Shown: positions 1,075-57,737, counted from the stretch's first letter. The stretch is DNA of 64,000 bases from Rhizaria sp. SCN 62-66 (GCA_001724265.1 MEDY01000035.1:1-64000); one strand, 5' to 3'. Program-made: numbers and translations. Notes: generated from the sequence alone by a model not told the origin.

Positions 1075-2682
1075 ATGTCGTCAAGCCACAGCCAGGCGTG
1101 GAGGTGTCGTGCTTGCCAGACGTTGAACACGTCCGGGGTGCAGTGCCAGTCTTGCCCGGGCCGCCGTGCTTCGTTCAGCGTTGCTGCGGCCAGTCCGCTG
1201 GCAAACAGCAACAGCGGCAGCAACAGCGGCAGCCACGCGACGGCTGTGTCTCCCAGCGCGAGCAACATCAGCATGACCGAAGTCGTGAGGAAGGACCCGT
1301 CGGTGCCCGCGCTGCCGTCCATGCAGTACGACACGGACCTCCCGCCCGACTGGCAGCGCGTGTACGACCACTTCGGCCGCGAATACTACGTCAACCACAT
1401 CACGCAGGAAAGCCAGTGGGATCGCCCCCAGGCGCAGGCCCCTGTTGCCGCGCCCCTTGCCTTTCTGCGCCGCGCCAGCACGCATCTTTTTGTGCAGGCG
1501 CCGCCCTCGTACGAGGTCGCCGTGAGCGACGGCGGCGCGAACCCTGACGTCGGCTTCGGCGCCTAGTCTCAGGCCTCCGCGCACTCTCAGCAGCAGCAGC
1601 AGCAGCACGGCGGCTACCCACTCGACATGGAGCGCGTGCCCGTGCTGCCGGACGCCGTCCCTGAGGCCGTGGCGGACCCCTACGCCGCGGCCAACGCGGC
1701 CGATGAGGTGAACCCCGCTGAGCTGGGCCCCATCGCGGGCCGGCCGTTCGCACGCCGCAACCCCGACGAAGAGCCCAACTTCGGCGTCTTGCGCGCGCGC
1801 TCGTTCCGCGCCGAGCGTGACCTGCGCGGCAACTGCTGCAAGGTTATTTTTATTGATACGATGGGGCGTAACAAGGCGCTGTGTGTGTTCAGCATGCTCA
1901 TGTGGGGATTTTTCGCAGGTTTCTTCGCCATTTGGGCTGACCACGGCTTTAACGGCGCCGCGCTCGGCCTGTTCATCACATTCTGCGTCATCTACGGCAT
2001 CTTTTTCATCACTTTTGTCATGATTGGCGGCTGCTCCCCGCTCTGCATGGCGTGCTGCACCGTCTCCAGCAGCTGCTGCGTCAACGACTACGTCGTCGAG
2101 GCTGTGCAGGCCGAGGCCAGCTCCTCCGTCGACAACGTCCGCGGCTACCTCGCCGCGCTGCACGAGGCCACTCCGGAGCTTCGACTGCACGTCACGTGCT
2201 CGCACACCGTCTCCACGGGTTCGGGCAAGCGCCGCCGCACGCGCACCGTCGTCACGTACCGCGGCAGCAAGGTAATCGATCTCGTTTCGCACCGCGACCT
2301 GAGCGTCACGCCCGCCGTCTACGCCGCGGCCGTGGCGGCGGACCCGGCGTCGTACGCGTGCGTGACCTACGACCTTGAGTGGGATGGATCGGAGGAGACC
2401 AAGGCACGTGTCGAGCGCGAGAAGACACAGTACTACATGGATAACCGCCACCGTGACACGTCGTGCAGTGTCAGTCTCGTGTATTCGCTGGGGCCGGAGA
2501 GGCGCATGGTTGACGTGCTGTGCAAGGACGAGGGCTGTCGGTACTACCTCGCCAATTTCTTTATTAATCGTTGCTGTATGTATTTGGCCATGTACGCGTC
2601 GCTGTATCTGCCGTATATCTGCCTTTGGAAGTGCCTCGTGCGTCCTTTCCGTTACACAAACACCAAGTACATTGTTGTCTGA
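1075..2682 (+). CDS. RanBP2-type-like Zn finger + WW domain + TMEM151-like membrane protein; one gene read through an in-frame TAG at 1564-1566
   Basis: ATG 1075. WRCRACQTLN..CQSC Zn-finger-like motif, WW domain LPPDWQRVYDHFGREYYVNHITQESQWDRP, PPSY motif. TAG 1564 is followed in the same frame by SQASAHSQQQQQQHGG into ORF 1627-2682 (TM helices; ATPELRLHVTCSHT..RTVVTY..HRDLS resembles TMEM151). Ends TGA. The paralogue at 55767 has WW and TM regions in one uninterrupted ORF. Confidence 0.75.
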
Positions 2683-3005
2683 GTGCATACGCTGAACGCG
2701 ACTTAGTTTTCATCATGCTCCTTGTGCTCCACTATCATCAAGTATGTCGTTGTCTGAGTCATTTTACAACTTAGTGCAGCTAGGTTCGGTTGTTTGTGCA
2801 GCTGTGCAGTTTAATGCCGTGTAGTTAATTTAATGCAGTGTTGTGTTGTGTGGAGGTGCTGGTGCCTATGCCATGTAACACGGTGACTGTGATATGAAGA
2901 TGAGGCTTGATATGCCCGAGACGAGATTAGTAAAAGGTGCCACAACAACTTACATTAAGCGCACAGCAATCATGTCCGGCGTGTGTTGAGTTGTTTTTTT
3001 TTGTG

Positions 3006-3040
3006 TTTTTTTTTTTTTTTGTGTGTGTGTGTGTGTGTGT
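3006..3040. repeat. T15 followed by (GT)10 microsatellite
   Basis: Read directly: poly-T 3006-3020, GT x10 3021-3040, intergenic. Confidence 0.95.
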
Positions 3041-3537
3041 TTTTTGTTATCCGATGCTTACATGACGGTGCGGACGATAAAAGAATGTATACGTGTGTAC
3101 ATGCGTATCCGTCGTCTTGTATGAGCTAATTTAAATAGAGGATAGGCATCGAACTCGGTACTTCAACGAAACAATACAATTTTCCAATGTGATTTTATTT
3201 CTCACCCGCATTATGATAAAGTGAGTTCATAATTGTTGGATTTTGAGTTATATCTGCTTGCTTGATTGACTAGATAGATAACGACGCTGCTTTGCGCGAA
3301 ACAAAGCGGGTCTAGAAATGGCTAAATAAACTGGAGAAATGTGAAGAGTTCCATGTGCAGAGGCTGTCATAGGCTAGCTCCAAGTTGCAGCAACGCATGG
3401 CTGCATGTATGACAGCTGTCACATTGTCCATGACACTGCATTAACAGCCGTGAGAAAACTTCGTTGCAAAAAGTGTAATCGCAGGTGAGACCACACGTGC
3501 ATCTTAAGAGCCCTCTGTACAGAGTCAGAATTCTTCT

Positions 3538-4575
3538 TCACGCAATGCGCGTGCGCTTTGTGATCTGACCCGGCAACGCGCCCGCACCCACCGCCGCCAC
3601 ATCCGCGTATTCCTCGGCGGCAGCGCCTGTATTCGCGTTTCCGTCAGCCTTTGCCTTTGCCTTTGCCTGGGATTCCGCTTCCGCTTCTGCGGAGGCGTTG
3701 AAAGCGCGCATAGTCGCGATGACCGCAGCCTCAGCGGCCTCCGCGTCGGCGGCGTCCATGGCGGCGACCGCGGCCGCGGGCAGCGGCGCGCCCGCGGCGA
3801 CAGAGGCGGCGGCGGCAGAGGCGGCGGCGGCAGCGCCGGCGACTGCGGGGGCCGCCAAGGCTGCGGGTAGTGTGAGTGAGCGCTCGGCGCGCAAAGAGAG
3901 AGCGGAGCGCTCTTGCCGGTTGGCCAGGAAGTGAATGAAATCACCGGATGTCGTAAGAGTTTGGCGGAACTGGGGAAGTGTGAATTGGTGGGTCGAGAGG
4001 TGGAGCGAAGAGAGAGAGATGTGAGGGGGGAGTTGAGGACGAATGTGTGGTGTTGGGGATGCAATCTGCAACACAGAGGATGAGGAAGATTATATACATA
4101 TGAATTTACATATAGCAGGAAGATTGTTAAAGGCAACATGAGCAACAAAGAATCCCGTGAAATGAGCGAATATGCGCGACGTACCTCAGGAAGGAGAAGT
4201 TGCTCGAGGAAGTAGAGTCCGTCGATGTGTTGCACAAAACGCGCGTAGTCGGGACCACGGAAGTACTAGGATATATAGACAGCAGAAACAGCACAACAAG
4301 AGGAAACATAACAGTGAGAACAACATGAAGATACAATTGAAAGAGGGCACTTATTGACCAGGATGGCGAGGATAACGTACCTGAAGGTAGGTGATGTAGT
4401 TGAGGAAGGTCGGCTTATCAAGAACGCCCTTCTGAGCCAGGATGCAGAGGTACTGAGGACTGGCAAGCAGCTCAACAAACTCGAGATCCATGATGAAGCG
4501 CACGTTGTCGCAGTGAGCAACCTCGCGCAGGTCGTCGACCAACAAGGACTGGTTCGCCGCGCCACCGTCGTTCAT
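3538..4575 (-). CDS. MED31: Mediator subunit 31 (SOH1/MED31), 3 exons
   Basis: Exons 4575-4381, 4265-4185, 3969-3538. GTACGT..AG introns 4380-4266 and 4184-3970. Spliced product RFIMDLEFVELLASPQYLCILAQKGVLDKPTFLNYITYLQ|YFRGPDYARFV..YFLEQL..|FRQTL matches the MED31 signature. Stop TGA. Confidence 0.9.
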
Positions 4576-5112
4576 GATGAGTGTGTGGCTGACGAGCAAG
4601 GTGACTGCGCCCTGAATGATAATGAGAGTGCAAGGAAGTATGGTAAAGGTATAATAGAGTTAGCACAAGGGAAATACGAATTAGCACAAATAAAGACGAC
4701 TTAACGTTCAAGGCGCCGCGCAAGATGGTCGTGAATATGTTGGACGAACTATCGAGTCCGTGCTCACGGTCATCGGCTGGCGGGCAAAGTGTGCTGACGG
4801 TATCGAAAGAAACGCCCTGTTCCTGTGGCCTGCACACGAGTAGGATAGGGATTCTACGTGGTGCAGTATTACCAATGCACATGGCTGGACCTATGTTTTA
4901 ATTTGAAACATCGTCCTGGCGCCGCATATGTGTGCTTTCATGACCGGCTCAGAGGAGAGCAGGAGAGGAGGCACGAATCTTTCGCTGAGTCATTGTGACG
5001 GCTTTAACGCACGATGTGAACTGATCTAAGTTATGAAACACGCACATATAGCTAGACCCTTACGCCACACTTTGATTTCACTCTGTTTTGTTTTCATACC
5101 TGTTGCTTGTAG

Positions 5113-6096
5113 ATGCGTGTGGTCAGCCTTCTCGCCGTCTCGCTTGTCGGTCTGCTCGCGGGCGTGCAGGCGCACGAGTACGGCCCTTCACTGCCGCCGG
5201 CGCCGCAGATGAACCAGTTCCCGGGTCCTCAGAACGGTCCCCAGAACAACAACTGGAACTTCCGCTCTTGGCTGTCAAACGCGTTCAAGCGCACCCCCCA
5301 GAACGAGCTCAGCTGCAAGTACACTGACCCTGTCTCCGGGACCAACTTCGACCTCACCAAGGCGCGCAAGGCCCAGGGCGACTATAACGGCGCCGACATG
5401 CGCTTCCGCTACGCCATGAACTTCTGCGGACCCGCCAACACGCCTGGCCCCTGCGCGCTGCACAAGGGCTCGGTGTGCCAGTTCTCGACGCTGTCGGGCA
5501 GTTACGTCGCCAACCTCGGTTCGTGGTCAAACTCGCCCCCGCCGCAGTTCGCCGTGAGTGATAGCAACAACCCCTCTGCGGGGCTCACGCTGACGTACGC
5601 CAACGGCGACACGTGCTTTATCAATCGCGCCGTTATGCCGCGCAAGACGATCGTGCACCTTATGTGCGGCGACTCTGACGACACGAGCTTCACCATCAAC
5701 GAAATCCCCAATATGTGCACGTTCCATATCCGCTACCGCACCACCGCGGCCTGCGGACTGGGCTCCTCGGCCTCGGCCACGCTCATCAAGTTCCTCGTTA
5801 TCGTGCTCGTCGTCGCCGCTATTTACATCGCCGCCGGATGCTTCTACAACGTCCGTTTCCACGAGAAGAAGTGGGGCAAGCTCGACACGATCCCCAACTA
5901 CGACTTCTGGCTCGCCGTGCCCGGTTACGCGGGCGCCGCGGCGACCTGGTCCTACGAGACGGCCACGGAGCGCTGGCGCCAATGGCGCGGCAAGGACGGC
6001 GGCGACTACGCGCCCGTGGCCGGCAGTGAGGAGGATGCTGGTGGAGCCCCGCACTCGGCTGTTGACGACCACGACGGCGGCGTCGCCGACCTCTAA
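5113..6096 (+). CDS. Mannose-6-phosphate receptor / ATG27-like type I membrane protein
   Basis: Signal peptide, Cys-patterned MRH-like domain (YAMNFCG..C..GSVCQ; LTYANGDTC..IVHLMC..CTFHIRYRTTAAC), TM helix, then YIAAGCFYN..IPNYDFW typical of the CD-MPR/ATG27 tail. Stop TAA. Confidence 0.85.
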   Translation: MRVVSLLAVSLVGLLAGVQAHEYGPSLPPAPQMNQFPGPQNGPQNNNWNFRSWLSNAFKRTPQNELSCKYTDPVSGTNFDLTKARKAQGDYNGADMRFRYAMNFCGPANTPGPCALHKGSVCQFSTLSGSYVANLGSWSNSPPPQFAVSDSNNPSAGLTLTYANGDTCFINRAVMPRKTIVHLMCGDSDDTSFTINEIPNMCTFHIRYRTTAACGLGSSASATLIKFLVIVLVVAAIYIAAGCFYNVRFHEKKWGKLDTIPNYDFWLAVPGYAGAAATWSYETATERWRQWRGKDGGDYAPVAGSEEDAGGAPHSAVDDHDGGVADL

Positions 6097-6711
6097 GCGA
6101 AGCACAGCAACAGGCAAAAGCAGCGGTAACGATTTTAGATAGTCGATATGTACATATACAAGCGCGACGTTAAGAGAGATGTCGGTGCGGTGTTGATATG
6201 TGAGTGTCATGTTGTTGTTGCTGTTGTCAGCTTGCTTGCTTGATGTGTGACACAAGTTATATTGAGTGTTGCTTGCAGAAATTTAGTTTCTTTATGTTTT
6301 GTTGTTGTTTTTTTATTCTGATTATGTACATGTACAATAGTAAAACCAATACATAATCTTTCATTCTAGACAACAAACAAAACAATACTTGCTTCGTCTT
6401 TTGCTTGGTGCAGCGAACCCAAACTTGACAGTACATTATGATAAAGAGTCTCATAAAAAGCACTCAAAGTGACAGGCGTTGTATTAAATATATTCTTTTA
6501 CGAAACAAACGTATTTTCTCACTTATCTTGACATCTAGTCGCTTGCACAGGCATGCCTGTGTGTGATAATCACACACGCGTTGTTGTTTAAGCTTACTAT
6601 AACTTCCAGCCTCCTCTCCTGCTACTGCTTGCCCTCAAGCACACGCGCGCGCGCGCATCTCAGTCATCCTAGTTTGCGTGTTTGCGCTCAGTTTGCGTGT
6701 TTGCGCTGCAT

Positions 6712-8235
6712 TTACGCCTTGTAGGCGCCCTGCTTATCGAGCACGCGCATCTCCGCGATGGACTCACCGACAATCTCGGTCGCGAGATCGGCCTCGGCCT
6801 CGGTCATGTTGAACGAGGGCGTGAAGCGGAGCGCGTTCTTGCCACCGTGAATCACGCCGAGACCGTTGCGACGGCACAGCACCTCGAGCGAAAGCGGGTG
6901 GCCGTAAGCGCGCCACTGCGGGTGGAGGTGCGCCGCGACGATCAGCCCGGTGCCGGAGGTGGACTCGATGACGTCGGAGTTGTCCTTGCGGAGCGCCTCG
7001 AGGCGGCCCTTAAAGTAGTCGCCGATGTCGTTGATGTTCTTGCGGAGTTCGGGAGTCATCGAGTTGAGCACGGCCGTCGCGACATCGAGCGCGCGGGGGT
7101 TGGTGGTCATGGTGTTGCCGTAGAGGCCGCGGGAGTAGATCTCCTGCACGCGCGGGCCGAGGGCCAGCACTGACAGCGGGTACTGGCCGCCGTTGAGGGC
7201 CTTGGAGTAGGTCTCGAAGTCGGGCGCGGCGGCGTCCTGGAAGCCGGGGTAGTCCATGAGGGACAGCGTGCCGCGGGAGCGCATGCCGGCCTGGATCGAG
7301 TCGACGAGCAGGAGCGAGCGGTACTTGTCGGTCATCTCACGGGCGACATCGTAGAACTCGCGGGTGATCGCCAGACCGGGGTTGCCCTCGCCCATGACGG
7401 GCTCCATAAGCATGACCTCGACGTGGAGGCCCGCGGTCTCGATCTCGTCGAAGACGCGGCGCAGGTCGGCGACGTTGTTGGGCTCGACGGTGAACAGAGG
7501 GAGCTCGTTGTCCTTGTTGGAGAAGGACTTGAGATACTGGTCGTAGACGGAGCGGGTCGAGTCGGAAGCGTGCGCGGGACGCTCCGTGCGGCCGTGGAAA
7601 GAGCCCTTGAGCGAGACGAGGCAGGAGCGGCGGCCGTTGTGGGGTCCGCCCTTGGAGGTCATGCGCTTGGCGTCGATGTCGGCGATGCGCATGGCGAGGG
7701 ACACGGACTCGGAGCCAGAGTTGAGGCAGACAAACGACTCATAGGGGCAGACGCCGCCGCGCGTGTGGCCGATCTCGCGGCGGATGGCGGCGTTGAAGCG
7801 CATTTGCGAGAACGACGGGGTCATGACGTTGGCCACGACGTGGGGCTGAGCCAGAGCCTCCATGACCTGGGGCGGCGCGTGGCCGAGGCCAAGCATGCCG
7901 TAGCCGTCGGTGCAGTACACCGCGGCGCCAGTGTGAGTGACCATCCAGTTGCCCGCGCCGCCGATGGGGATGTAGGGGTTGACGGCGGTGGCGTCGTAGA
8001 ACTGCAGCAGGCCCTTCTGGACCTCGACCAGCGCGTCCTTCTCGTCCATCTTCATAACGGCGGGGAACTCGGTCACCAGCTTCGCGTGGGCCGCCTCGGC
8101 GCGCTCGCCGGCAAGGATGAGGTTCGGGTCGCTGGCGAACTTCTTGAGGAGCGTGTCAGAGACGCCCCGGGTCACGGTCTTGATGCCGGCGGACTTGGCG
8201 AACTGGCGCAGGGTGGTGAGCGACTTCTGAGACAT
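6712..8235 (-). CDS. Class-III PLP-dependent aminotransferase, L-lysine 6-aminotransferase-like (bacterial type)
   Basis: 507 aa intronless ORF. LNSGSES, SFHGRT, MEPVMGEG, LLVDSIQAG, TYSKALNGG (PLP lysine), GNTMTTNP, LRFTP. Stop TAA. Confidence 0.88.
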   Translation of the reverse strand: MSQKSLTTLRQFAKSAGIKTVTRGVSDTLLKKFASDPNLILAGERAEAAHAKLVTEFPAVMKMDEKDALVEVQKGLLQFYDATAVNPYIPIGGAGNWMVTHTGAAVYCTDGYGMLGLGHAPPQVMEALAQPHVVANVMTPSFSQMRFNAAIRREIGHTRGGVCPYESFVCLNSGSESVSLAMRIADIDAKRMTSKGGPHNGRRSCLVSLKGSFHGRTERPAHASDSTRSVYDQYLKSFSNKDNELPLFTVEPNNVADLRRVFDEIETAGLHVEVMLMEPVMGEGNPGLAITREFYDVAREMTDKYRSLLLVDSIQAGMRSRGTLSLMDYPGFQDAAAPDFETYSKALNGGQYPLSVLALGPRVQEIYSRGLYGNTMTTNPRALDVATAVLNSMTPELRKNINDIGDYFKGRLEALRKDNSDVIESTSGTGLIVAAHLHPQWRAYGHPLSLEVLCRRNGLGVIHGGKNALRFTPSFNMTEAEADLATEIVGESIAEMRVLDKQGAYKA

Positions 8236-9056
8236 CGGTAGGAACCTGCGTGCGGAAAAGAAAAGAAGAAAACGGGGAGTGTAAAGGGGGGTGAGTTGGA
8301 TGCAAGAAAAATATGAATTGTGGGAAAAGATGGGTTATGGGGACGAAAATTGCCGAATAAGGGGGAAAAGTGTGTCCCGGATTCGAGGTGTGGTGCGAGT
8401 TGAAGTTTAAATTCTTTTGATGATACGCAAAGGACCCGGGAGCAGGGAGTCCAAAAGAGCCTATTCTCCGTGGTATGTAGGCAATCACACTTTAGGAAAG
8501 TGTATCGCTCCATTATTCGCAGGGCGATGAACACGGGGCGGGGAAAAATGGATGACGCTCGATCTCGTCGCTCGGTCGAGGGATCCGAGAGATTTACGGC
8601 TTCGCCCCACGAATCCTGCGCTGCGACTGACACATTAATACCTCTATCCTCTCATAATGGGTATAAATCGCACTTTAGAGAAGGCGCTACACCACACCTT
8701 GACGGACGCTGGAGCTCAGGCGTTTGAAAGAAAGGTCCAACCCATTAACGTCTTGAACCCCGGTGTAAGTGGCCACCCTGCCCACGGTCACTGACCGTGA
8801 GCATGCCTCGAGGAGGGGGAACGCTATAAAAGTGCATTAATAATCGTTTTATTGATTCTAGATAAACACATAGCGCAGATATATCAACATGTTGAAGTTT
8901 TGTGTCGCATCTGCAATATCATAGAGATGCGTTTTACTAAACGCTCAAACTATAGTAAGTCTAAATAACAAAGCACGTTAGATATCCACAGATCTGATTT
9001 ATGAAGTCGACGCTTCAGGGCTCGGAGTTCCAGCTTCGTAGCTCCGACGCGATCGC

Positions 9057-12000
9057 TTAGTCGTTGTAAGCCAGCTTAAACGTCGGCATCATAACCTGTC
9101 CCGCCGGGGTAAGCACGACAGCGCCGCGCACAGTCACCGCAACATCAAACGGCGACAACGACAGTGAATGATCCCCTTTGATTCCGGTACAGCTATTGCG
9201 CACAGCTCCAAACCCGTCACGAGACTGTTGTTGTTGTTGCTGGGACTGTTGTTGCAGTGACTGAAGCGTCGCAGTGACTTGTTGATACAGCTGCTGCTGG
9301 TGCTGCTGCGACGGCGCCGGCGGAGGCGGATACAGCGGGCTTTGCGCCGGCAGCAGCATCGAGCCGACTGGCACCGCGCCCATGGCCACACGGTACACAG
9401 TCGCAGCCGTCCGGCCGGTACTTATGGGGGTACTCGTGGGGCTCCTAGTGCCGTCGCGCACGGCCCAGAGCTCAATCACGCCGCGCCTCGGCGCGAGCAA
9501 CAGCACGTGCAGCGCGTTCGAAGCCGTCTCAGCCTCAGTCATGGCCGCGATAGACTGCGCGACAGCCTGTGTAGAGGATGGCTGCAACACTGCGGAGGAG
9601 ATTTGGCGCACCGACTGCGAGTGTGACTGAAACTGCGGTTGTGACTGCGGCGTCGAGGTTGTTGACTGGAGGCAGCGGAAGTCAAGCGCTACCCAGGCCG
9701 CGCTGGCGTCTCGGAGCCCCTTCCACAGCCTCAGCAGCGTCGCCCCGCCGGCCGGCCCGCCCGCGCGCAGCAGAGCGGCGCGGCCTAAGCCGTCGGTCCA
9801 CACAGCGAACGGAGGCGGATTGCTGACGCTATCGCTATAGCTACAGCTGCTGTTGTGGGAGGCCGCTGCACCGCTGCGATTATGCTGGCGATGCGAGCTG
9901 CTGCCGCTGCCGCGGCTGCTGCTGCCGCGGCTGCTGTCGCCGATGCGACTGTCGCTGGACACGGAGGGGTACCGGGGCAGCAGCAGGCGCGCTGTAACCG
10001 AGCCCGGAAGAGGGACACCGACCGTCGCAGCGGAGACCGCGCCCCACCGAGCCCACATGGACCCATGAGTACCGTGCGTACCAGTATTCCCAGCAGTCCC
10101 ATGAGTTCCACTTGACCCATGAGTACCAGAAGTACCAGCGGTCCCGCCGCTAGAATAAGCCCCAATCACGCTCGCATCTCCAGCGTTCGCGAGAGCGCTC
10201 ACGCTCACGCTTGCGAGAGAGCTCAAGTTAGCGCTGACTAAGGAGTCTGCGAGTGGGCGCGCCGAGAGGACCGCAAACGCAGCAACCTGACCCAGCGCGG
10301 GCGCGGGCAACAGCGCAGTCACACGGCGCGGACCGTCGGCCAAAGCGCCGGCGCCCGCAGCGGCACACACGCGGGGGCGCGCTGCTGCGGAAGATGCAGC
10401 GCTCTGATTCTGACTCTGATTTTGACGCGAACGCGGTTGTATAGGTGGATGTTCATCACCCTCGTCGTCATCCTCCTCATCGTCCTCGTCGTCTTGGTCG
10501 TCATTCGCCTCGGTCTCGGCGTTCGCAGTCCCTGTCTCAGCTGTGGGGCTCGAGGGTGTCGCAGGAGTGCCCCAGAACGAGGTCCATAGCGCGCCCGCGA
10601 CCGTTGACGCCGCGCTGGCCGCGAGCGCGAGGCCCGCCCGCGCCGCGGCCCCGGCAGCCTCGCGCGCCCAATCGCGGTTCCGCATCCTCCTCCGCCGCCG
10701 CTGGGGCCGCGGCTGCTACAGACCGTGAATGTGAGCGCCGTGGCCGTGGGCGCTATAACTGTGGGACGGGTGGCTGCTGCTGCTGTGGGGTAAATCTGGG
10801 GCGGTCCAGTCGCTGTGCTCGACTGGCAAAGCGACTGTGTGAGAGGGACGACTCACAGTCGCTGTCCCCGTCTTGATTGCAGTCCGAGAGCAGGATGACC
10901 CAGTGACCGTGTTGGTGACTGTGAGCAGCGAGGGGGCAGTGCCGGCGACGACCAACGCAGGCGGAGCGTTGTCGGGCCAAACCCCCGCCACCGCCGCCCC
11001 TGTGCTTGCAGCAGCAGCAGCAGGACTTGAAGACATGGATTCAGGGTTATACTCATGACGTTGGCCTTCTTGCTGCTGCTGCTGCTGCTGCTGCTGATGT
11101 TGTTGTTGTTGTTGTTGTTGTTGCTCAGAGTGTAGCCCGAGCTCTGCCAAGAACGCGTCTCGCGAGGGCGCGAGCGGCACAGGCGGCGCCGCGACAGCCG
11201 CCGCGGCCACCGCGCCCGCTTCCTCTTGGGCAGAGCGGCTGAGCGGCGTCGGCAGCAGCGTGACGCGCGCGCCGGTCAGCGGGAGCCTCGCCACCGCGTC
11301 GGGTGAGCGGGCGCCGGGGACGCCAACCAGCGCGGAGAGCGCGGAGTGACAATGGGCGGACAGGGCCCGCAGGGGCAGCGCGGTGACTGCGCGCGGCTGA
11401 GTCAGCAGCAACACACCGTCGCCGCCACCGCAGTCATCGCCGTCGCCACTGAGTGACTCCGACGGCTGCAGCCGCGACCGCGACTGCAACCGTGACCGTG
11501 GGTCTGTCGTCGTCGTCGTCGTCGTGGCTGTTGTGGCTGTTGCGGCAGGGTGGGAAATTGAGGGCGCGGGGCGCAGGGGCCGGGAGCGAACTGGCGCGGC
11601 GAGAGACAGGCCGCGCACGGGGCCCGCTAATGCAATGCGTGCAGTCTCACTTACGGCAGCCAGAGCCGCCCTCGCAGTCTAAGCGTCGTCGCCGTCGCCA
11701 GTCTCCGCGAGGTCGGTGCTCAAGTCGGAGACGGAGGCGGAGGCTTCAGTGAGTGCGGTGGCCGAGACTGCGGTGACGGCGAGGGGGTCGACAACGAGCA
11801 GCCGCCCGCGGGAGGTGCCCAGGAGCAGAACACTGTGCGTCGCCCGCAGCACATCACCCCCCGGCGCGGATGCCGCCGCTGAGGCTGATGCTGAGGCTGA
11901 GGCCGAACCACAGGCGGAGCGCGCGGCGGCAATGGCGGCGGCGACGGCGGCGGGCGGCGCGAGCGCGAGCGCGGGCGCAGGCACAGGCGCGGCGTGCACC

Positions 12001-12575
12001 GGGATCCACAGCGCTGACGTCACCGCCTCAACACTTGCAACAGCAGCAGCAGCGGCAGCAGCAGCAGCAGCAGCACCACCACCACCACCACCGCCACCAC
12101 CAGCGCCAGTTACCGATAGTAGAGAGATGGGGGATGGAGCGGGGACCTGTGAGGGGTCGAGGCGGGCGAGAAGGTCGGGCAGCGTCACGCGGAGCGTCTC
12201 AAAGGGGCCCTGCGCGGGATTGTGGCGGGGTCCAACCCCGCCGCCGAGCTCGAAGCATCCGGGACACATCAGCGCGCGCCGCGCGGGGCGGATGAGCCAC
12301 AGGGACGCGCCTTGGGCGACGGCAACGCAGCAGAGGTCGGGCGTCGCGGCGACCACGCAGCCGGCGAGCGGAGACGCGGCCTCGAGTAACGATGCAGAGG
12401 CTGCAGCAGCGGCCGAGGTTGCACCGGAGGCTGGGGAGGCGTCGGGTGGTGATGATAGAGCGGCGAGGGAAGCGACGACCCCGGCGAGCAAAGGAGGCGG
12501 GTGCTGACGCCAGTCGGGGCCGCCAAACGCGAAGTCGACGGGTGAGAGCGTGATCAGCCCCGCGGTGGCGTCCAT
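9057..12575 (-). CDS. RAB3GAP2: Rab3 GTPase-activating protein non-catalytic subunit (RAB3GAP2 N-terminal domain)-like; read through two in-frame TAGs (11679-11681, 10716-10718)
   Basis: Three consecutive ORFs in one frame separated only by single TAGs. LLLGTSRGRLLV in the first segment; WTDGLGRAALL..LRLWKGLRDASAAWV..LLLAPRRGVIELW in the last (family motif RMWKGYRDAQ..APRRGxxEVW). First ATG 12575, stop TAA 9057-9059. Confidence 0.8.
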
Positions 12576-12969
12576 GCGTGGCTGTGGAGCGGGGCTGAGG
12601 CGAGGAAGAGCGTCAAGCACGGGCGGGGTCAAGATAAGATTCGGTTCGAGGGGTTAACTCTGTGGTGGAGCAACAGCAACAAACTAAAATAGAGATGCAT
12701 GCAGCAGGGTGTCCGTCAGTGGGAGTATTATAAATGAGAAATATACGTATTCGTAAAATGATATATGTATATAAATAAGTACACGCTTGAGACGATGGGA
12801 AACTCGGCTGGCGCCGAAATTAACATTAGCCTCAACCCGCCTCTCGGTCGTTGCACTGGCCACAAACAAGTTTCCTCCACATGACATTATAAATGTTCCT
12901 TCTACGTTTAAAAGTGGGGTTATATAGCAAAAACAAGTTTTATATCCTAATCGATGGCTATCGTCTCAA

Positions 12970-16719: not shown

Positions 16720-17109
16720 GGAAAAGTGTTGTTACAACCAAAGCCAAGGCGAAAACAAGGCAAAGCTAAACGAGGGAAGGCGCAAGGTATTTATATTTAT
16801 AAAATATGATTGTTGAGTTGGTAGCGAGCTGCTCCGATGAAAAAACTAATATTAAGCTGTATTGAGGCATCGTAGTGGCCTGATTATGGCCCTGTTATTC
16901 AACAAATGCATTATCCAATCAATCAATACACATATCACATATCTTGTGAAATATCACCCTACTTAACAATAAAGATCGCACTGACTGACGAGGTGATGAG
17001 CCCATGAATCACTATATATGTACACGTACATAAGGACTTGACAAAGCGAAGAGTATTATTCGCTAGTGCCTGCATATGCGTGCATCCAGTTCTCAAACAG
17101 TGAAACACT

Positions 17110-46975: not shown

Positions 46976-49900
46976 TTAATCATCGTAGCCCATGAGCCCA
47001 CCGTCACTCTCCGCCTCCTCTGGCCGTACATATCCCAGCTGTTCGTCCAGACGGACAGTGAGATTGCCTGCGCCCTCAATGCCCGCAAGTATGCGCCCGC
47101 CTCCGACACCCGCACTGCCGCCGCCGCGGCCGTTGGGACCCGCAGCGCGCGCTTCGTGCTCCGAGACTGCGGTCCACTGGGGACCGTTGGGGCAGGAGCA
47201 GCCGCGCTCGGGAATGCCGGGGCCGTACTTGGTGCAACCGACGCCGCACTGGGCGCAGATAAACCACGTGGTTATGGCAGTCTTGGTCAGCAGTCTACGT
47301 GGGATCAAAATTGCGAGAAAAAAAATAACATAAAACAGAAAGTGTGATGCAAGAGACAGCAAGCAGCGTCGTGAGGCATATCATATCAAATTTCATTGTG
47401 AAATGCGAGAAGAGAACTAAAATGGACGTACTTATGGTTGTTGTTGGCGCAGAAGATGGGTTTGAATGGGACCCACTTCTTGGGCACACCACACGTTGGG
47501 TCTGTAATATGACCAAAAAAAAGTGAAAATACACATTAACAAACATGAAACAAAGCGATTGGAAAGAAAATTAGCATGAATTACATATACATATTAGATT
47601 ACAAGATGAATAGTTAAAATTATTGAAGTTACAACGATAACGTACCTGAGCACTTAAAGAGCGTGGCCGTGCCCTGCGTCTTCTGCTTAAGTTTCTCCTC
47701 GAGAGCCTCGAGCCTCTCCGCGCGCGCCAGCTGCGCATCCAGCGTCTTAAACTGTTCGCTGCGCGCCACAGCCTTGTTCGCCTCACGCGTCGCAGTGCTA
47801 TGCGCTGCCAACCGTTCTGCTGGATCGTAACCAAACCGCGCGATCGCCTCAGCGCGCGCCGCTGCAGCCTCAGCCTCTTCCGCCGTCTGCGCGCGCGACG
47901 CAGTGCCAGCGGCGGTCGCAGTCGCAGTGGATTTGTCGCCCGTGTCAGCATCGGCGTCGGCGGGACGCGCGCTCTTGCTGGCAGCGGCCGCAGCTGGCAG
48001 CGTGGGGGGCGCGCGCTTGTAGACTGAAACACCGGACACACGCGCAGTCGATCCCCCAGGCTGCAGCGAAGAATCAACGCATGCGCCAGCAGACAGCGCC
48101 GCCGTCGCGCGCGCCACGGCCGCAGCAGCAGCCTCTGGAGTGGGACCAACAACGGGGCGTTGCGCTTCGTCAAGCATAGCCGAGTAAGACGCAGCTGCCA
48201 CTGCGGACGCGCCACCGCGCGCGCCAGTTGCTGAGCCGAATAACCTGCCGCCAAAAAGCGCCTTGGAAAGCGATAGGTTCGTTGCAAGCGCAGCGGCCGC
48301 AGGCGGACTCGACGCTTTCGCTGCTGCCGACGTCGCGGCAGGAGATGCGTTTGTGGTGGCAGAGGCTGTGGCGGAGGCAGCGGCAGCGCGCTGTGCCGCG
48401 AGCTTGGCGCGCGCGGCCTCGGCGGCAGCAACCTGTGCAGGTGTGGTATCAACCTCGTTTGTCGCCACATGCGAGGCCGAGGGCGACTGTGACGCAGTTT
48501 GCAAAGCGGGCACAAAGAACCCTGTTGGTGCAGGGCGTGAGACGCCGGAGAACGACGAGCCGTACAAAGAGCGGCGCGGCGCAGTTGCGTCAGGTAACGA
48601 CGCTGAGACCGGTTGAGTGGCGGTCTGCGACTGCGACTGGGACTGGCACTGTGATTGGGAATGTGTCTGTGGTTGTGGTGTGTGCGTTTGCGACTGAGAC
48701 CGTGAGACCGCGGGCGACGCGGCAGGACTCACTGCAGTAGCGCTGCTGCCACTGCTTTCACGGTCGTGTTGACGCAGCACCGCGGCGCGCGCGGCAGCGG
48801 CTGAGGGCTGCGAGTTTGCGTGCGGCGGCAGCGTGCGCAGCCCAGGTGCCTCACTCAGAAGATCCGGCGTGCCCGCGGTCGGCGCCGCGCCCGCGACGAC
48901 GAACCGACTCAACGTGCTGTTGTCCGCGCCGGCAGTGGAGACAGTCGCAATTGTACGCATCGTCGCGGTCACGGTGCCCGTCACCGCCGCGGCGGATGCA
49001 GCACCGACCGAGTGCCGGCGGTACAGCGAGCCCGCAGACGAAGCAGAACTACTGGCAGTGCCGCTCTTTTGACTCGCGCCGGCAGTGGTGGCGGGAGCGG
49101 GGCCGAGATCTGCGAGTGTGAGCCGGCGCGGTGCTTCACCTGCCGCGCCAGTGCGTGCGGCCAAGTCAGCGGCGACTGCGCGCATGACACTTTGTGCACC
49201 GCGTGACTGCAGGCGCGCCAGAGCCAGTCCGCCAGCTACTGTCGACTCAGTAGCGGCCTGTGAAGCCGCAACAGAGACAGACGCAGGAGCTGAAGCGGTG
49301 GAGGATGAACGAGCAGGAGAAGCAGATGCCAACGATGACGACGATGATGATGAAGATGTAGTCATGGTTGGCTTCAAACTCGTTGTGTTCGCTGCAGTTG
49401 GAGGCTGCGGGCCAGCAACAGCCGCAGCGCTCGCATCCTTGTTCTCACCGCTTTCAGCTTTGCAGCTAATGCCGTGATGCATTGGCTCCCCCTGCTTGGC
49501 GGAAGCCGACGCTGTTTTGTCTGCTGTTGCTGTTGCTGTTGCAGCGGCTACAGCGGCTGCGCGCTCTTTGTCGGCGCGCACCGCAGCGGGCACCAGCGCC
49601 TGCGCAACTGCGGCAACAACGTCGAAATCAGCGAGCGCTGTGGCACGCGCCGCACGGGCCGCGCGCGAGTCACCGGCGGGCAGCTAAACGCCCGCAGCGG
49701 CTGCGTGGCGCGAAAACAGCGACGGCGCCGACGGGCCCTGCTCCAGAGCGTCGGCGGCGCCGGCGCGCTGAGCTGCGACTCGCGCGCGCGCGACCTCCGC
49801 CTGTTGCTCGACAGGCAGCTGCGTCACCAACCCACCGACACCGCCAGCAGCGGCACCAGCGTGCGATCGACTGCTGAGAGTGGCGGCGTTGCTGTCGTTG

Positions 49901-51378
49901 TCGTTGTCAGCGGCAGCGGCAGCGGTGGCGGGGGAGTTGTGGTCGTCCTCGTGTTCCGACTCCTCGTGTTCCGACTCTTCGTCTGAGCCGAAAAGCTGGT
50001 CCACGGCGGCAGCAGCGGCGTCGCGGCGGCGGGTTGCGGCGGCAGCGTCCTCCGCAATCGAAGCAGCAAGCGCGAACGCGAATTCGTCCTCGGCTGCGAC
50101 GCCCGATGCAGCGGCGCGGGCCAACGCAGCGGCGCCCGAGGCAGCTGCAGTGTTGCGGCCACCTTTCATAGTCGCGGTCGCCGCAGCGGCGCGGGCCGCC
50201 TCGGTAGGCCGCGCTGCAGACGCAGACGCAGACGATGGAGGCTGAGTCGAAACAGAGGAATTGGAGGCAGAGGTGACTGAGACGCCCGATCCAGCTCGGA
50301 AGGATCCGATGTTAACAGGCGCTGACGAAGGATTATACAGCTGCGGGCGCGCTTGCGATGCGTGTGAAAGCGCATTCTTCGTGTGCTCCAGACACATGAG
50401 CTCGCGCCTGTCCTTGTTGTTAAGCCAGACAGAGCAGCGGGAGACTGCTTCGCGGCCCCGCATAGAGCCAGTGCACTGTGACAAGTCACTCGCAGTGCCT
50501 ACCAGGAGCACTTGACGCGGGAATTTGACCGTGAGCGCATAGCCGACGCGGACAAAGTCGGGCGGCGCGTGTTGCTGGTACCCGGGCACGTGCGGCTCAC
50601 GGCGGACGACTTCGGCGCCGCCAAAGACCAGTAGCGAGCCTGTTTTGACTGAGAGCAGGGGCTCGACCGCGCCGTCGACTAGCATGACCGAGACAAGGCG
50701 GCGATCCATGTCAAACACACGCCACGTCGTGTAGGGCTTGCCGTACTGCGAGCTCTTGACGTCGCCTTTGCTGTAGAGCACGCCGAACGTCGCCCAGCCA
50801 GCCAGTGCGCGTTCAGGGCGGACTTCACTCAGAGGCACGACCGTAACACCCTTGAGCTGCGCGGCGAGCGCGTCTTCGGAAACAAGCCGCGCATGCACGC
50901 GCACGCCCGTGCTGGCGTCCACGCGCGCATCGGCGGGGGCCGCGGGGACGGAGACCACGGGCGCGGCCATCGGCGCGGTCGCGACGGCCGAAGCACCGCT
51001 GCGGAGAGTGCTGCCGCCACTGCCGCCGGAGTGCCAGTGAGGTGACAGCAGCGCGGGCGCGCGGGAGCGCTGCTTGGCGGCTGCGGCCTCGCCCAACGCC
51101 TGCACACCGCCCGTCTTCGTAGCATAGGCGTTCATCTTGTCGCGCGCAGCAACCACGCTTGCGGGCAAGGGCTTCGAAGACTTTGCAGAAGGACCTGAGC
51201 CACCGGAGGGCTTCTGGTCGGGCTCATCGTCCGCCTCGCTCATCATCACCGTCGACCGCGCGCCAAGACGCGCACCAGCCATGAAAGCAGCGGCCTTTTG
51301 TGCCGGAGTAAGATTCGCCGGCTTCCCGGCTGCAGAGACGCCCGCGCCGGAAGAGGGCGGGAGCTTGCCAGAAGACAT
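46976..51378 (-). CDS. MCM10: Replication factor MCM10, 3 exons, read through an in-frame TAG at 49684-49686
   Basis: OB-fold region WATFGVLYSK..GKPYTTWRVFD and Zn finger C(TGSMRGREAVSR)C..N..C..H before the TAG. After it, LEALEEKL and the C-terminal Zn motifs rebuilt by splicing (exons 51378-47646, 47501-47432, 47294-46976): FKCSDPTC..FCANNNH..FICAQCG..CSC..W. Stop TAA. Confidence 0.88.
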
Positions 51379-51863
51379 GCTCAGCCGTCTGGTTAAAAGT
51401 AAGGATATCGAGGCATAAACAATTTGTGGGAATACATAAAAGAATTCAATGGTAGATCTTTCAAAATATTCTTAAGAAATAACAATGATAATACTATTAA
51501 CGGACGATGCCATGCATCTTGACTGAGCGATTCACAGCTGCTGCGCCATCGTCTGCGCGCGAACCGCAGTCTCCGACCATCACCACGAAAGCGTGTCTCA
51601 AGTTGTCAGAACAGTCACGTCTTTCTCATGCTGAAAGCTGTTTTAGCTGCTCTTGTTACCTGTAAAGCTTTTGAGTAAATTATGATCGGCTTGTTTATTG
51701 ACCCGGATCCCAATCATTCACAGACTTTAGACCTACATCAACGTCGAACAATCACAACTGTCAGCTGCGGTAGTGGACATACATTTTCCTTAAAATATTA
51801 TCAAATTCCCCCGTCGCTTTGCCCTGCGCGCTGCCCGTTGCCTTCACGCTGTGCGCGCGGCTC

Positions 51864-54259
51864 TTACAACTTCTGTGGTCGGCTGGGCGTGTGCGGGCTA
51901 CCGTCTACCACTAGATCTGGTGACACGGCGCGCAGGCGGTCGATAAAGTAAGCACGCATCTCGCGCTGTGCCAACTGTTTCAGCAACAGCATTGACAGTC
52001 GCAGCACGTTGCCATCCACGTCTTTCACCATTACCCGCTGGGATTTCTTGGTACTACTACCATTAAGCTTATGAAAGACACTCCTGTTCTTCGTTTTACC
52101 CACATCTGCGCGTTTAGTGCTTACCTGAGAGATGACATGGTGCTCGACATCGTGAATCATTGACGCATACTTGCCTCCCTGAAAGAGACGATGAGCTGCT
52201 TCAAAGTCCTCTGCGCCAAACGCGCTCCCAGGTGGTGCTATGACATGTGGGAGTCCCGCGATGTCAGCCGCTTGACAAATCCACTTACTTGTACTCAGCA
52301 GGGTGGCAACAGGCACCCAACGCACGGCGACAGTCTGGCCCTTGATGGCCCAGTATGGATTTTCTGCGACGTTTTTGCTCAGCTCCGGCGACGCCATTGC
52401 GTCTGCCCGGAGTGCGCGGTGCAGCACAGGCAGTCCGCGAAGAACAGCTGGCATCGGTGGTGACTCGTGTTGCTCTCTCGCAAGTCCCTTCGCGATATAT
52501 TTCCGAAGCTGCGGTCCCGGTGGCAACTGCCTCGTTGGATGAAACAAAGTTGGTGTGCGTGGTTGCGCAGACACGCACACAGGCCACACAGTTGCAGGAA
52601 CAGCATTTTGGGATAGTTTTGCGCCCTCAACGCGCGCACGCGCCAGCGTCCGACCCAATTCGCTTACCGTCGTCTCCGCCGCCGCAATTGCGGAGGCCGA
52701 GACAAGCGCGGGCACAAGGACCGGATTGATTCCCCTTGCTTCAACTGCACCCTGAGTGCCTTCAATGGCGCCGTCTCCACCTTCCGCAGATTGATATACT
52801 GCCGACGAAAAGTCGCGGTCAATGTCGATCACGTGCGCAAGCATCTTCATGTCTTTGAGCCACACCACAGCGTGGCCCGCTGCGGCAGCCGCGGCGCGCG
52901 CGGTCGCCGCGCTTAACTCGCGCGAGCTCCACGCATGTGGAGAGAAGGGCCGTACAGGGGCGTCAGCAGCGTCGACCAGAGTGAGCATTGCATGCTCAGG
53001 AGGCAGTACCTCGTCAATGTGGGTCAGCCACTGCGCCGACGTCCTCACGCGCGACACGAGGGGCGTGCCTTGCGATTGCGCGGCAGCGGCGGTCAGACCG
53101 CTTTCAGAGTCAGACTCGCCCCCACTCTCACACTCAACCTCTACGTCTCGGAAATAGCCTTCACAGCCGTCTTCACTCTAGCTCTCGCTCTCCCCCTCAC
53201 CCTCACGTTCGCTGCCGCTCTCCTGGTCACTCTGACTTCCTGCGCCGTCGCGGTCGCCACAGTCTGTGGTCGCCGTAGTTGGAACAGTAGCGTCAGCACC
53301 GTCTGCGCTACCCCCTGCAGCAGGTCTAGGAGCGCCCTTCGCGCGCACGTACTCGCGCATCACGGCCATGCGCACCGCGTCAGACGCAGCAAACGCCGCG
53401 CCGCCCGACATCAACCCAGTTTCGCGGCGCACGTGCGGCGACAGCAGGTCCATTGCTTCAGCATTAAACTTGCGCAGGGCCGTGTACAGTGACGTTGGAT
53501 CGCTCGGGTGGCGGCTGCCGCCGGCTAGTACAGCAAACAGAGAGCTCCTCGACTTGTCTCTCTTGCTAGTTATGTCTTCGCGCGGTTCAAGTGCAACAAG
53601 TGCACATAGTCCCGCCCCAGGCAATACCGCAAGTGGAAGTACGCCCGCGCTGGCGTAGGTCACCTCTTCAACAGCTTGTGCAGCGAGAGGACGCAAGTAA
53701 CTACTGCGACACGGAAATTTCTTAGGAAGCTATACAGCAAAAGGCAGCGCATCTGGCGTAGGATTTAACGCCAGCAGACCCCCGTGATCATTTGTTGCAG
53801 TCTGCAGTGCCTAAGCCGCAGTGACGGCCGCTGCAATTGAGCTAGCCACAGGGTTTGCAACGAATAGGTTATTGTGCAGCCCGGGCGGTATTTCTCAAGC
53901 ACCGCTTGAGGGCTCAGGACAGAGTTATCAACGCTTGTGATAAAGCAGCAGCCATCATCAGACTTGCGCGTGGATCTGCTCTGCTTTTTCCGACGGCCAG
54001 AAGGTGTTCCAGGTTGGCTGGAGACTCCTGTCCGCGCCGGATGGCCTTTAGCGGCGGGGTGGTTGCTATCGCCCGATTGCAGGACCACTGCGGCGTCGCT
54101 AGCGACAACGTTCTCAGCAGGTGTTAGACCCAAAAGTTGAGCGACATGGAGATTAATCTTCTAAAGTTGGCATTTAAGACAGTTGAGGCTGCTGCTTTCA
54201 CTACACTCTGCGCAACAGCTCTGAACCACAGCAAAGCCCTTGCTCCCAGATAAAGCCAT
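51864..54259 (-). CDS. Uncharacterised protein with a degenerate Nudix-like motif; four in-frame TAGs and one apparent frameshift near 53770-53895
   Basis: ATG 54259 preceded by a splice-acceptor-like tract. TAGs at 54161, 53811, 53730, 53178 each followed by a continuing open frame. SAGVLP..LAGGSRHPSDPTSLYTALRKFNAEA resembles a Nudix box with lost Glu residues. Stop TAA 51864-51866. The 5' part is in a different frame from the rest. Confidence 0.5.
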
Positions 54260-54545
54260 AGTGATAGGAGACTATAAGCGAAGAAACTGGACGGAAGAAG
54301 CAAAACAAACATCGAAAAAATGTCAATGAATCCAAATATTGCACAATCAGCTCCTAAGACAATCCGACTAAGTCACAATACGTCACATAACTTTGCAGTT
54401 TGCCTACTTCGACCGGTAACTTTGACGAGCATATCTCAGAGATTCAGTCAAAGCTTGAGTGTTGTGTAAAATGCATTGGAAATAAAATGTCGTGAATACA
54501 ATGCTACTACAAGTAGTACCTCGTTAATGAGGTTTTCACTTCATC

Positions 54546-54599
54546 TAACACATTTTGTTTGACGAGGACCAGTTGGTCCTCGTCAAACAAAATGTGTTA
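54546..54599. repeat. Perfect 26-bp inverted repeat with 2-nt spacer
   Basis: TAACACATTTTGTTTGACGAGGACCA (54546-54571) - GT - TGGTCCTCGTCAAACAAAATGTGTTA (54574-54599), exact reverse complements. Confidence 0.97.
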
Positions 54600-55766
54600 A
54601 TTCTCTGGACTCACGTCACCACGACGAGAGAGGTTCACAAAAAATCGACGCAATCAACTGAGAACCGGTTGATAACATCAAGAATTAGCCATAGAAATGC
54701 AGTTTTATGACAAATAATATAGTCGTCAGTATGAAAATAAGTTTAGTTTTGACAAAGGCTTTTGCTCTAACCCTAATAACCATCATATTGTATAACTGTT
54801 CAGCCATATACTACACTTTGATGAGTGTCTGTGCTACTTTAAGTCATCATGTGCGAAAATAATTTTTATTATGGAGTTCGTTTGCTATACTGTGACAGAA
54901 ATGTAACTTTTTTGTCTCGATCGTAAAAAGTCCTGGAGTAACTGACTTATAAACTCGATAGTGCGTCGATAGGCGGCTTAAAGATGAGAAAAAGCGTGGC
55001 ATACAAGGTGAAATTCGTCATACAATTGCATATTGGTTGGTGTATTATACAAGCATAACCCATGTGTTCAAGCGCTGATATTGCAATTTTTTGAAGAGAA
55101 ACCAAGATATAGGCGCACGAATCACGCCCACTTGTATGCGCAACGCAACTCTGGTCACGTGTGAAGTTTGAAGTAGATATCTCTGCGTAAACAAAGATTT
55201 GTGAAGTCAATTTTGAATGGAAGATGCTTTATTAATCACTAGATTTGAATCCTGATTTATAGTTGATATGTCTTTTTGACAGACTTGAAAATCATTTTAG
55301 GCGATAAAAAATCGGATCGTCAGAAATCAGAAAGAGTTCCGCGGTCATCACAGCCACCAGAAGTTTCACCATGCGACGTGACCTGTGGCAGTGTGGCTGG
55401 AGAGGCGGGCTGTTTACAAGTGCACGGCATAAAATTCATCGTGAAGTAGGAAACTACGAAGATTCTACGAACATTCAAGAGATATTCAACACAGATATAT
55501 TTGTACACGTGCGCCTTCTGCCTTCTGTTATGAACATGTATCAGGCAAAGTTGACGAGATGGGAAGGGAGGCTGGCCGTTGCGTTCGGCTTGCTTCTTCC
55601 CGGGGGAATGGGAAAGACCCGCGTCGCGTTTATTTGGAACTGTGTTATAACTTGAAGAAACTGCTTGAACACGTGTTTTTACATTGTATTTATTGCACCT
55701 TACTCACCCTGCCAACCAAAAACATATTTTTCCCGCGCCCTCGCACCGCAGACCAGACCTCTCTCG

Positions 55767-57737
55767 ATGTCGGCCTCCCCTCCTTCCTACCCGGCGGACC
55801 TCCCACAGGGCTGGGAGCGCAGCACTGACAAGTGGGGCCGCGAGTTTTACATCGACCACAACACAGGCCGCACCCAGTGGGAGCGTCCCCAGTCCACGGA
55901 GACCGTCGACAAGCCCACCGCGCCTCCCGCCTACCAGGACGTCAGCCAAGCCCCGCCGTACCAAGCGGGCTCCTTCGCGGTCGACCCTTCCCTCGCTGGA
56001 TCCACCGCAAGCTCCGGCAGCGCGCCCCCGCAGCTGCAGCAGTACCCACAGCCCGGTTATCTCCCCGGTCAGCCTCTGCAGCTAAACATCGCCCCCGTCG
56101 CCCCCGTCGCGCCCGGCGGTCCGATCATCCTCCAAGTCGCCGGCGCTGGCATGCTCGCGGTCGGCGACACGGCCTACACCGCCGGGCAAAGTGACCCGTC
56201 GCTGGCCCCCGGCGCTCCCACCGCGCAGCCCCAATCCACGCGCGATACGCTTGCTCCTGGGTACTCGGCGGTGAACGACGCGCTCGAGCCCTTCGCGTTC
56301 GAGCGTCTCGGCTTTCTCTCGGCCTGCGCGCGCGGATTGGAAACGTACCCTATCGCGTGCGCGCTAACGCTGGTGACGCTGCTGCTCTTTGCCGGGTTTG
56401 CTGTGTTGCTGGCCGTCATGCTAAACACGGAGACAGATTATTGGGGCGACCACGATCTGTCGTACCTCCCCGGTATCATCATCTGCGGCATGTTTGGCTT
56501 CATGACGTACATCGTCAACTGCTCGGTGCACTTGGCCGCTGTGCCGTGCTGCGACGGATGCTGCTTCTACAACGGCACCAAGCCTTCGCTGTCCCGCAAC
56601 CGCGCGCGCGCGGCGCCGCAGGCCAACGCGCATAACGCCACTTCCCTCTTCGGCGGCGCTGGAGGCGGTCCCTTCAACGGCGGGTTCGCCATCAACAACG
56701 GCCGCGGGCAGCAGGCAAACCGCACGCCGTGCATGCCGAAGTACCGCGACTGGTTCAACGCGCACATGTCGGAGGCCGGAACGTACCGCGATTTGGAGGA
56801 TTACCTCGATGAGACGCGCACGGCACGCATGACCCTGAGTGCGCGTGTGCGCTGCTTTGCGTCGGAGCAGGGCCCCATGATGTCGTGGGCGCGCATCAAC
56901 GTCACCTACATGTCCGTCAGATGATAACTCTCATTTTCTCGCGATTTTATTTCAGCTGTTTAGATTGTTTTGATTCTTTGATTCTTGTTCTCATTTGCTT
57001 GATTGTGCTAATATTTCCGTTGTTTTCTTGTTTTTCTTGTAGTGCTGAGACCCCGCTGACGATCGCGTCGGCGCGCGACACCACGATTTCGTCCGAAGAT
57101 CTCCGCACGTGGCTGCGCGAGCAGGCCCGTGGTGACACGTTCCTGGCTACTCTTGACCACACATTCGACGCGACGCCGCAGAGTCGCGATGTGCTCAATG
57201 CGGTGTGCACGCATTACCAGGGCGTTATGGCGTCGGTTGCGACCTCGTCTAGCGCGTGGATCGAGTTCGAGCCCCTGGTCGCGCCCGTCAAGGGCACGTT
57301 TATCGTCAGTGAGGTGCGTTTCTGGAGGAACAGCTCTTCGTGCTATCTTACAATGTGCTGTAAACTTCGTGTTTTCTCATTTGAAGCGATATATTGATTA
57401 TTTTTAAAGTGAACTGTATGGGTCAAGACTATTTTAAGGCGTTTATGTTGGATAATCTTACTCACAATGCGATCTTTGCGACTTGGTTGTTTTCTTTGCT
57501 ATCATTGCTTTTGCACCGTGACAGAACTCGGGCGGTTCATTTTACGTCTCGTGCATGCGCTCATGCTGGTGCCCGACGTTCGCGGTCATGTTCTGCTGTG
57601 TGCCGTGCTACGCCGGTTTGTGGCACTGGGTGCCGCGCGTCCGTGTGGGCTCACGCAAGCTTATCAATGTCGCACCTCCGATCCTTGAGTCGGACCCCAG
57701 CCGTCTCCGCATCATTGGCCGCATGCAGGTCGCGTGA
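55767..57737 (+). CDS. WW domain + TMEM151-like membrane protein, 3 exons (paralogue of 1075-2682)
   Basis: WW LPQGWERSTDKWGREFYIDHNTGRTQWERP, PPSY/PPAY motifs, two TM helices. Exons 55767-56911, 57043-57313, 57525-57737; introns GTCCGT..TAG (56912-57042) and GTGCGT..CAG (57314-57524). Stop TGA. Confidence 0.75.

Follow-up and report, generated by a model that had tools for sequence, protein, structure and literature searches.

UAG and UAA nearly always change meaning jointly, and a split between the two is reported for only a few lineages (PMC5304391, PMC11687900, PMC10553269). In the fornicate Iotanema spirale, UAG is reported to encode glutamine (Gln) with UAA and UGA kept as stops, and UAG makes up approximately 8% of Gln codons and is found at conserved Gln columns (PMC5304391). 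The same report describes the sainouroid rhizarian exLh, in which UAG encodes leucine (Leu), from 384 in-frame UAGs in 71 genes, with Leu at 82 of 86 hyperconserved positions, and a consistent amino acid at conserved UAG columns emerges as the hallmark of the published cases (PMC5304391). Phyllopharyngean ciliates are described as reading UAG as Leu or Gln, with three independent origins and a suppressor tRNA-CUA in two genomes (PMC11687900), and a further ciliate is reported to use UAA and UAG for different amino acids (PMC10553269). In Fusarium and Neurospora, genes with premature stops are reported to undergo adenosine-to-inosine (A-to-I) mRNA editing of UAG to UGG (PMC11156358, PMC5496914). 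Here, we analyze the 64-kb stretch MEDY01000035.1:1-64000 (assembly GCA_001724265.1, deposited as Rhizaria sp. SCN 62-66; hereafter the window), which comes from the nuclear genome of an uncultured eukaryote with high GC content and few introns, and in which TAG triplets stand inside otherwise open genes. We find that UAG is probably translated in this organism, with UAA and UGA terminating.

Results

A first-pass annotation of the window had pointed to eight in-frame TAGs, and every one of these triplets is found, with coordinate and strand correct (1564 on the plus strand; 10716, 11679, 49684, 53178, 53730, 53811 and 54161 on the minus strand). Five of them (1564, 11679, 10716, 49684 and 53178) are in frame 0 of supported genes, and for these the accompanying claim of coding-like flanks in the same frame stands. 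It does not hold for 53730, 53811 and 54161, which lie in weakly coding sequence without a usable ATG; three of the eight TAGs are not convincing coding sites. Likewise, the four genes to which the TAGs had been assigned come down to three solid genes and one uncertain locus. The five in-frame sites correspond to 5 of 15,754 codons (~0.03%) and occur in unconserved linkers only.

The gene at 1075-2682 (+) combines a RanBP2-like zinc finger, a WW domain, a PPSY motif, a linker and a TMEM151-like membrane domain, and ends in TGA. It is a single protein only if the TAG at 1564-1566 (+), codon 164 from the ATG at 1075, is translated. The WW Pfam match lies 5' of this TAG and the C-terminal half after it is TMEM151-like; 371 open codons follow, and both codon log-odds and GC content at third codon positions (GC3, 0.83-0.92) are continuous across the site. 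Both halves lie in one uninterrupted open reading frame (ORF) in the orthologue P0007 (480 amino acids, 42% identity), and a second orthologue, L002:89-1555, is also a single ORF, which ends in TAA and has 48% identity to the window protein in the alignment and 44% by tblastn. A paralogue inside the window (55665-56924, +) again carries both halves in one ORF, with 27% identity over 275 amino acids spanning the TAG site. The TAG itself is located in a linker that is not conserved, between PPSY and an RxRSFRxERD motif; this linker is longer in the window gene than in the orthologues, and the residue aligned to the TAG is methionine or a gap in the orthologues and threonine in the paralogue. The architecture of WW domain, PPxY-like motif and TMEM151-like domain is thus seen four times, in the two window paralogues (1075-2682 and 55665-56924) and in the two relatives.

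The second gene with an uninterrupted orthologue is MCM10-like (46976-51378, -), with a main exon at 47646-51378 apparently followed by two introns with GTACGT donors and by Cys-rich 3' exons. Its MCM10_OB domain at amino acids 158-252 is above the cut-off (E = 4.8e-12), and a zf-primase match is weak (E = 0.12). The in-frame TAG at 49684-49686 (-) is codon 565 of the gene and is followed by 684 open codons. When it is read through, the ORF is colinear on both sides of the TAG with that of the relative P0021 (1161 amino acids, single ORF). The TAG sits between the conserved blocks GPSAPSLFSRHAAAA (before) and ALADFDVVAAV (after), the latter being followed in order by GSLYRR, AGADNxTL, EAPGLR, FGYDP and LFKCSGT. 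The residue of P0021 aligned to the TAG is lysine, in an unreliable column. Pfam returned no family for the part after the TAG.

At the 3' end of the MCM10-like gene, the stop of the ORF falls inside an apparent intron, and the spliced reading ends in TAA at 46976-46978. Judged from the sequence, the introns at 47502-47645 and 47295-47431 appear to lead to two small Cys-rich (C-x-C) 3' exons, and the KCSG|GT junction is also present in P0021. The putative exons, taken one by one, gave no Pfam or PDB match, and they are therefore only a candidate for the MCM10 C-terminal zinc domain.

The behavior of the three stop codons across the window sets these TAGs apart. None of the 17 ORF ends is TAG (10 TGA, 7 TAA), and in four genes (WW/TMEM151, Ssu72, LAMTOR3 and the aminotransferase) the TGA or TAA end matches the C-terminus of the family; this absence of TAG from gene ends is that of a small sample. 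After the 17 terminal stops the frame remains open for 0-83 codons (median 10), compared with 320-684 codons after the five TAGs, with no overlap between the two groups. A six-frame scan, blind to gene calls, for single stops that have 150 or more open codons to each side returned 14 cases: 8 TGA, 6 TAG and 0 TAA. All 8 TGA cases and one TAG case are in shadow frames, that is, antisense to or out of frame with a supported gene, and the interruptions of a gene's own frame are exactly the five TAGs. The earlier statement that no TAA or TGA breaks a gene is thereby borne out. Given that TAG accounts for 638 of the 3053 stops in six frames, finding 5 of 5 TAGs among shadow-type events has p ~4e-4 and is therefore more than chance.

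Two further TAGs interrupt a Rab3GAP2-like gene (9057-12575, -), which runs from the ATG at 12575 to a TAA as one 1172-codon frame broken only at 11679-11681 (-; 320 open codons follow) and at 10716-10718 (-; 552 open codons follow). Frame 0 has the best codon score throughout the gene. The RAB3GAP2_N match is confined to the last third of the protein (amino acids 942-1066, model positions 326-409 of 419); Pfam gave no match for the segments before and between the TAGs at E up to 10. The full-length protein had no match in a word-indexed search, and an exhaustive HMMER search found no orthologue, returning the protein's own fragments and two weak matches to the C-terminal part of Rab3GAP2. The candidate homologue P0019 was rejected as an AAA protein with a compositional match. 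AlphaFold2 without an alignment gave an unusable model of the read-through protein, with a mean predicted local distance difference test (pLDDT) score of 34. Contigs of poly(A) RNA map to all three segments of the gene (X7 records 28-30) and also to the WW part of the gene at 1075-2682. Depth spikes with many loose ends are seen at 9339-10005 and 11340-12006, because GCC/GCG and CAG low-complexity repeats there attract contigs of other organisms.

The remaining locus, at 51.8-54.3 kb, is mixed. The TAG at 53178-53180 (-) is located in an acidic low-complexity stretch of the ORF 51864-53849, is followed by 437 open codons and is a probable coding site. This ORF has a moderate coding signal, a GC3 of 0.58, below that of the other genes, no Pfam family and, for the part after the TAG, no Atlas match. 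The three doubtful TAGs (53730, 53811 and 54161, spanning 53730-54163, -) are upstream of or out of frame with it. Around them, codon log-odds are approximately 0 or negative, GC3 is ~0.4-0.55 and GC content within 45 nucleotides (nt) on each side is 0.43-0.58; no ATG occurs between them and codon 131 of the ORF, so that no start is available for the frame. The ORFs 53765-54259 and 51864-53849 overlap in different frames. More broadly, ~52000-56000 forms an island of lower GC content (0.52) in which codon bias is weak, frames overlap and four TAGs occur; possible readings of this island are a gene in decay, a gene of several exons or foreign DNA.

An intron-borne, in-frame TAG can be seen at 4266-4268, where an intron of 115 nt (4266-4380, -) with a GTACGT donor, a T-rich body and a GC content of 0.41 ends in TAG; it serves as a model for how such a TAG looks in this genome. 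Other candidate introns with GTACGT donors are predicted from sequence at 4066-4184, 17641-17696, 47502-47645 and 47295-47431 (all -). The five share a length of 56-144 nt, T-richness and a GC content of 0.26-0.41, a strikingly uniform signal in an intron-poor genome. At the five in-frame TAG sites, local GC content is 0.59-0.76 with codon periodicity (0.65 at 11679 and 0.76 at 49684). GTACGT-type donors are missing near four of the five, and no strong donor lies in the 400 nt upstream of three of them, including 11679 and 49684. The donor-like motifs near 10716 (GTGAGT, 138 nt upstream) and 53178 (GTACGT, 172 nt upstream) are embedded in GC-rich, codon-like sequence unlike this genome's introns.

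Comparison with contigs of other runs was confined to positions 1-20000, and hence to sites 1564, 11679 and 10716. Among the matches listed, no contig has a differing letter at any TAG. No credible splice joint was found in 1-20000; the joints seen had sides of 21-24 nt in low-complexity repeats. Contigs from 2025 runs (X4 and X7) differ from the window in clusters, mainly by G/C exchanges, at 7333-7498 and 19260-19324, within the aminotransferase and kinase genes, which points to the presence of a related strain or species in these samples.

The window as a whole has a GC content of 52-73% and carries long, mostly unbroken ORFs on both strands with a GC3 of ~0.75-0.9, some genes exceeding 2,000 codons. 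It encodes eukaryotic proteins with housekeeping and trafficking roles, namely WW-domain proteins, Rab3GAP2-like and MCM10-like proteins, a DENN-domain protein, Ssu72, LAMTOR3, a RhoGAP, NCA2 (a mitochondrial ATP-synthase assembly factor), a queuosine-salvage protein, an ATG27/CIMR-like receptor, a kinase and a class-III aminotransferase. No tRNA gene was found within the 64 kb, and an Rfam scan of the window had no match, rRNA included. The DNA is found in bioreactor, wastewater and activated-sludge metagenomes and recurs over several studies and years. Because of the high GC content, long stop-free shadow ORFs occur antisense to real genes, among them ORFs of 535 amino acids (1081-2688, -) and 817 amino acids (36104-38557, +); hence, ORF length alone is no evidence for a gene in this genome.

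Discussion

TAGs are found within conserved genes that are otherwise intact, whereas no gene end in the window is a TAG, and UAG is therefore most likely read as an amino acid. The first-pass proposal that UAG alone has been reassigned is the best-supported reading, with five TAGs in coding frames, orthologue proof for two of them and 0 of 17 ORF ends in TAG, and it is drawn from 17 genes. The two sites with orthologue proof are those in the WW/TMEM151-like and MCM10-like genes, where the UAG lies in a gene colinear with uninterrupted orthologues; at 11679, 10716 and 53178 the support consists of a continuous frame and of codon statistics. In such a code, ribosomes would translate UAG as an amino acid instead of terminating, a tRNA with anticodon CUA would presumably decode it, the release factor eRF1 would presumably recognize it poorly, and UAA and UGA would stay as stop codons. 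Sparse UAGs confined to unconserved linkers would fit a recent or inefficient reassignment.

Several observations count against translation of UAG. No amino acid can be assigned to the codon, because all five sites are in unconserved linkers, and in relatives the orthologues are free of in-frame TAGs. TAG is absent from the three largest genes, which together have 7,082 codons, and from the other clean genes. With the codon usage of the window, random nonsense mutation would yield TAG in 61-64% of cases, which under plain mutation gives p ~0.09 for 5 of 5 and makes the exclusive presence of TAG among internal stops weaker evidence than it appears. The N-terminal segments of the Rab3GAP2-like protein have no homologue detectable by Pfam, word-indexed or HMMER searches, no RNA contig bridging a TAG was found in 1-20000 among the matches listed, and the sample is 17 genes from one window.

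We suggest, tentatively, that the window captures an early codon capture in an undescribed non-ciliate lineage, in which UAG would have gone from the terminators and would just be reappearing as a sense codon at unconstrained linkers. If true, the reassignment of UAG alone would have arisen independently here and would be the most ‘incipient’ so far recorded.

Alternatively, the code could be standard and the TAGs overcome site by site, either through A-to-I editing (UAG to UGG) or through programmed or leaky readthrough by near-cognate tRNAs. This would explain why UAG is the only codon affected, why it is very rare and why all sites are in tolerant linkers. Fungal A-to-I editing, in addition, is reported to prefer U at position -1 and often to edit UAG stops, and genes that depend on the UAG-to-UGG change are known (PMC11156358, PMC5496914). 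We nevertheless regard it as unlikely, given that the lack of TAG at 17 gene ends would then be due to chance (~0.02 if one fifth of genes used TAG), that no downstream context is common to the five sites and that 4 of 17 genes in need of rescue is a high share. No A>G change is present at the TAG sites among the contig matches listed, RNA cover of the sites not being among these.

The TAGs could also be genuine premature stops, through nonsense mutation, decaying pseudogenes or split genes, with the downstream ORFs untranslated or started at internal ATGs. The mutational bias towards TAG described above would be in line with this, as would the public gene calls, which treat the pieces as separate proteins, the ATG 20 codons downstream of TAG 1564, and the degraded look of the 51.8-54.3-kb locus where codon bias is weak, frames overlap and four TAGs occur. 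Elsewhere the pattern is a different one. The three solid genes have no frameshift, TAA or TGA interruption, and strong codon bias and orthologue-level conservation continue 3' of the TAGs. The 320-codon middle segment of the Rab3GAP2-like gene is ATG-free for ~210 codons after TAG 11679 and no ATG occurs for ~69 codons after TAG 49684; nor is there a spacer at the TAGs, compared with gaps of at least ~340 bp between listed ORFs. MCM10 is a core replication factor, and the same TAGs occur in assemblies of other years and studies. Hence, we doubt that premature stops account for the five sites.

Far less probable is that short in-frame introns, or other segments removed by splicing, have gone unrecognized and contain the TAGs. 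Introns ending in YAG do occur in this genome, one of them with the in-frame TAG at 4266-4268; the GTGAGT upstream of TAG 10716 would give an in-frame intron of 141 nt; a GTACGT precedes TAG 53178; and the orthologues have a shorter linker where TAG 1564 lies. However, the GTACGT-donor introns are short, T-rich and low in GC, whereas the surroundings of the TAGs are GC-rich and codon-periodic, and most of the sites have no strong donor within reach. Removal of an intron of 175 nt at 53178 would not preserve the frame, which is in fact kept, and the sole donor-like motif near 1564 (GTGAGC, 42 nt upstream) would delete a G-A-x-P block common to the orthologues. A frameshift would be expected from two thirds of introns, but the frame is kept at all five sites. 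Sequencing or assembly error, which the first-pass annotation had raised and which a metagenome assembly might invite, is hardly credible, given that TAG 1564 is unchanged in L001 and in the DNA contig of an independent study (X3 record, 363-2210, 0 differences), as is TAG 10716 in X4 (10171-10964, 0 differences).

With UAG translation as the preferred reading, the window can be set against the described systems. No description of a wastewater eukaryote with a UAG-only code was found in the open-access papers searched. Iotanema spirale, a non-ciliate protist, resembles the window in having UAG alone inside genes and UAA and UGA at their ends, but it is an anaerobic metamonad, whereas the window organism is GC-rich and encodes NCA2. 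The rhizarian exLh is similar in that its stops are reported to be exclusively UAA and UGA (56 + 15 of 71 there, 7 + 10 of 17 here). For both, the differences in UAG use weigh against the reassignment proposed here: Iotanema spirale has UAG at approximately 8% of Gln codons and at conserved columns, compared with 5 of 15,754 codons and no conserved column in the window, and UAG is described as plentiful and Leu-consistent in exLh but is sparse and uninformative here.

The phyllopharyngean ciliates share the restriction to UAG, and those cases were likewise reported from mining of metagenomic and public assemblies; UAG use is described as widespread there but is sparse here, and the window has long genes and a GC content of 52-73%. 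Ciliate macronuclear genomes are AT-rich and gene-dense. The editing fungi Fusarium and Neurospora resemble the window in their genomic, in-frame UAGs within functional genes and in the specificity for UAG. In those fungi UAG is reported to be still a normal terminator, in contrast to 0 of 17 ends here. The gene set of the window (DENN, Rab3GAP2, LAMTOR3) is presumably unlike that of an ascomycete.

Public gene calls cut the TAG-containing genes into fragments of 351, 300 and 542 amino acids, the last two being pieces of the Rab3GAP2-like protein, and if UAG is indeed translated, annotating the contigs of this organism with the standard code therefore goes wrong at every TAG. Overall, the window likely represents a further case of the known class of UAG-only reassignments. 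As a further independent case, if true, it would add an observation on how a codon is lost from the terminators, and it would differ from the known UAG-only cases in its very sparse UAG, its GC-rich and intron-poor genome and its gene for a mitochondrial ATP-synthase assembly factor.

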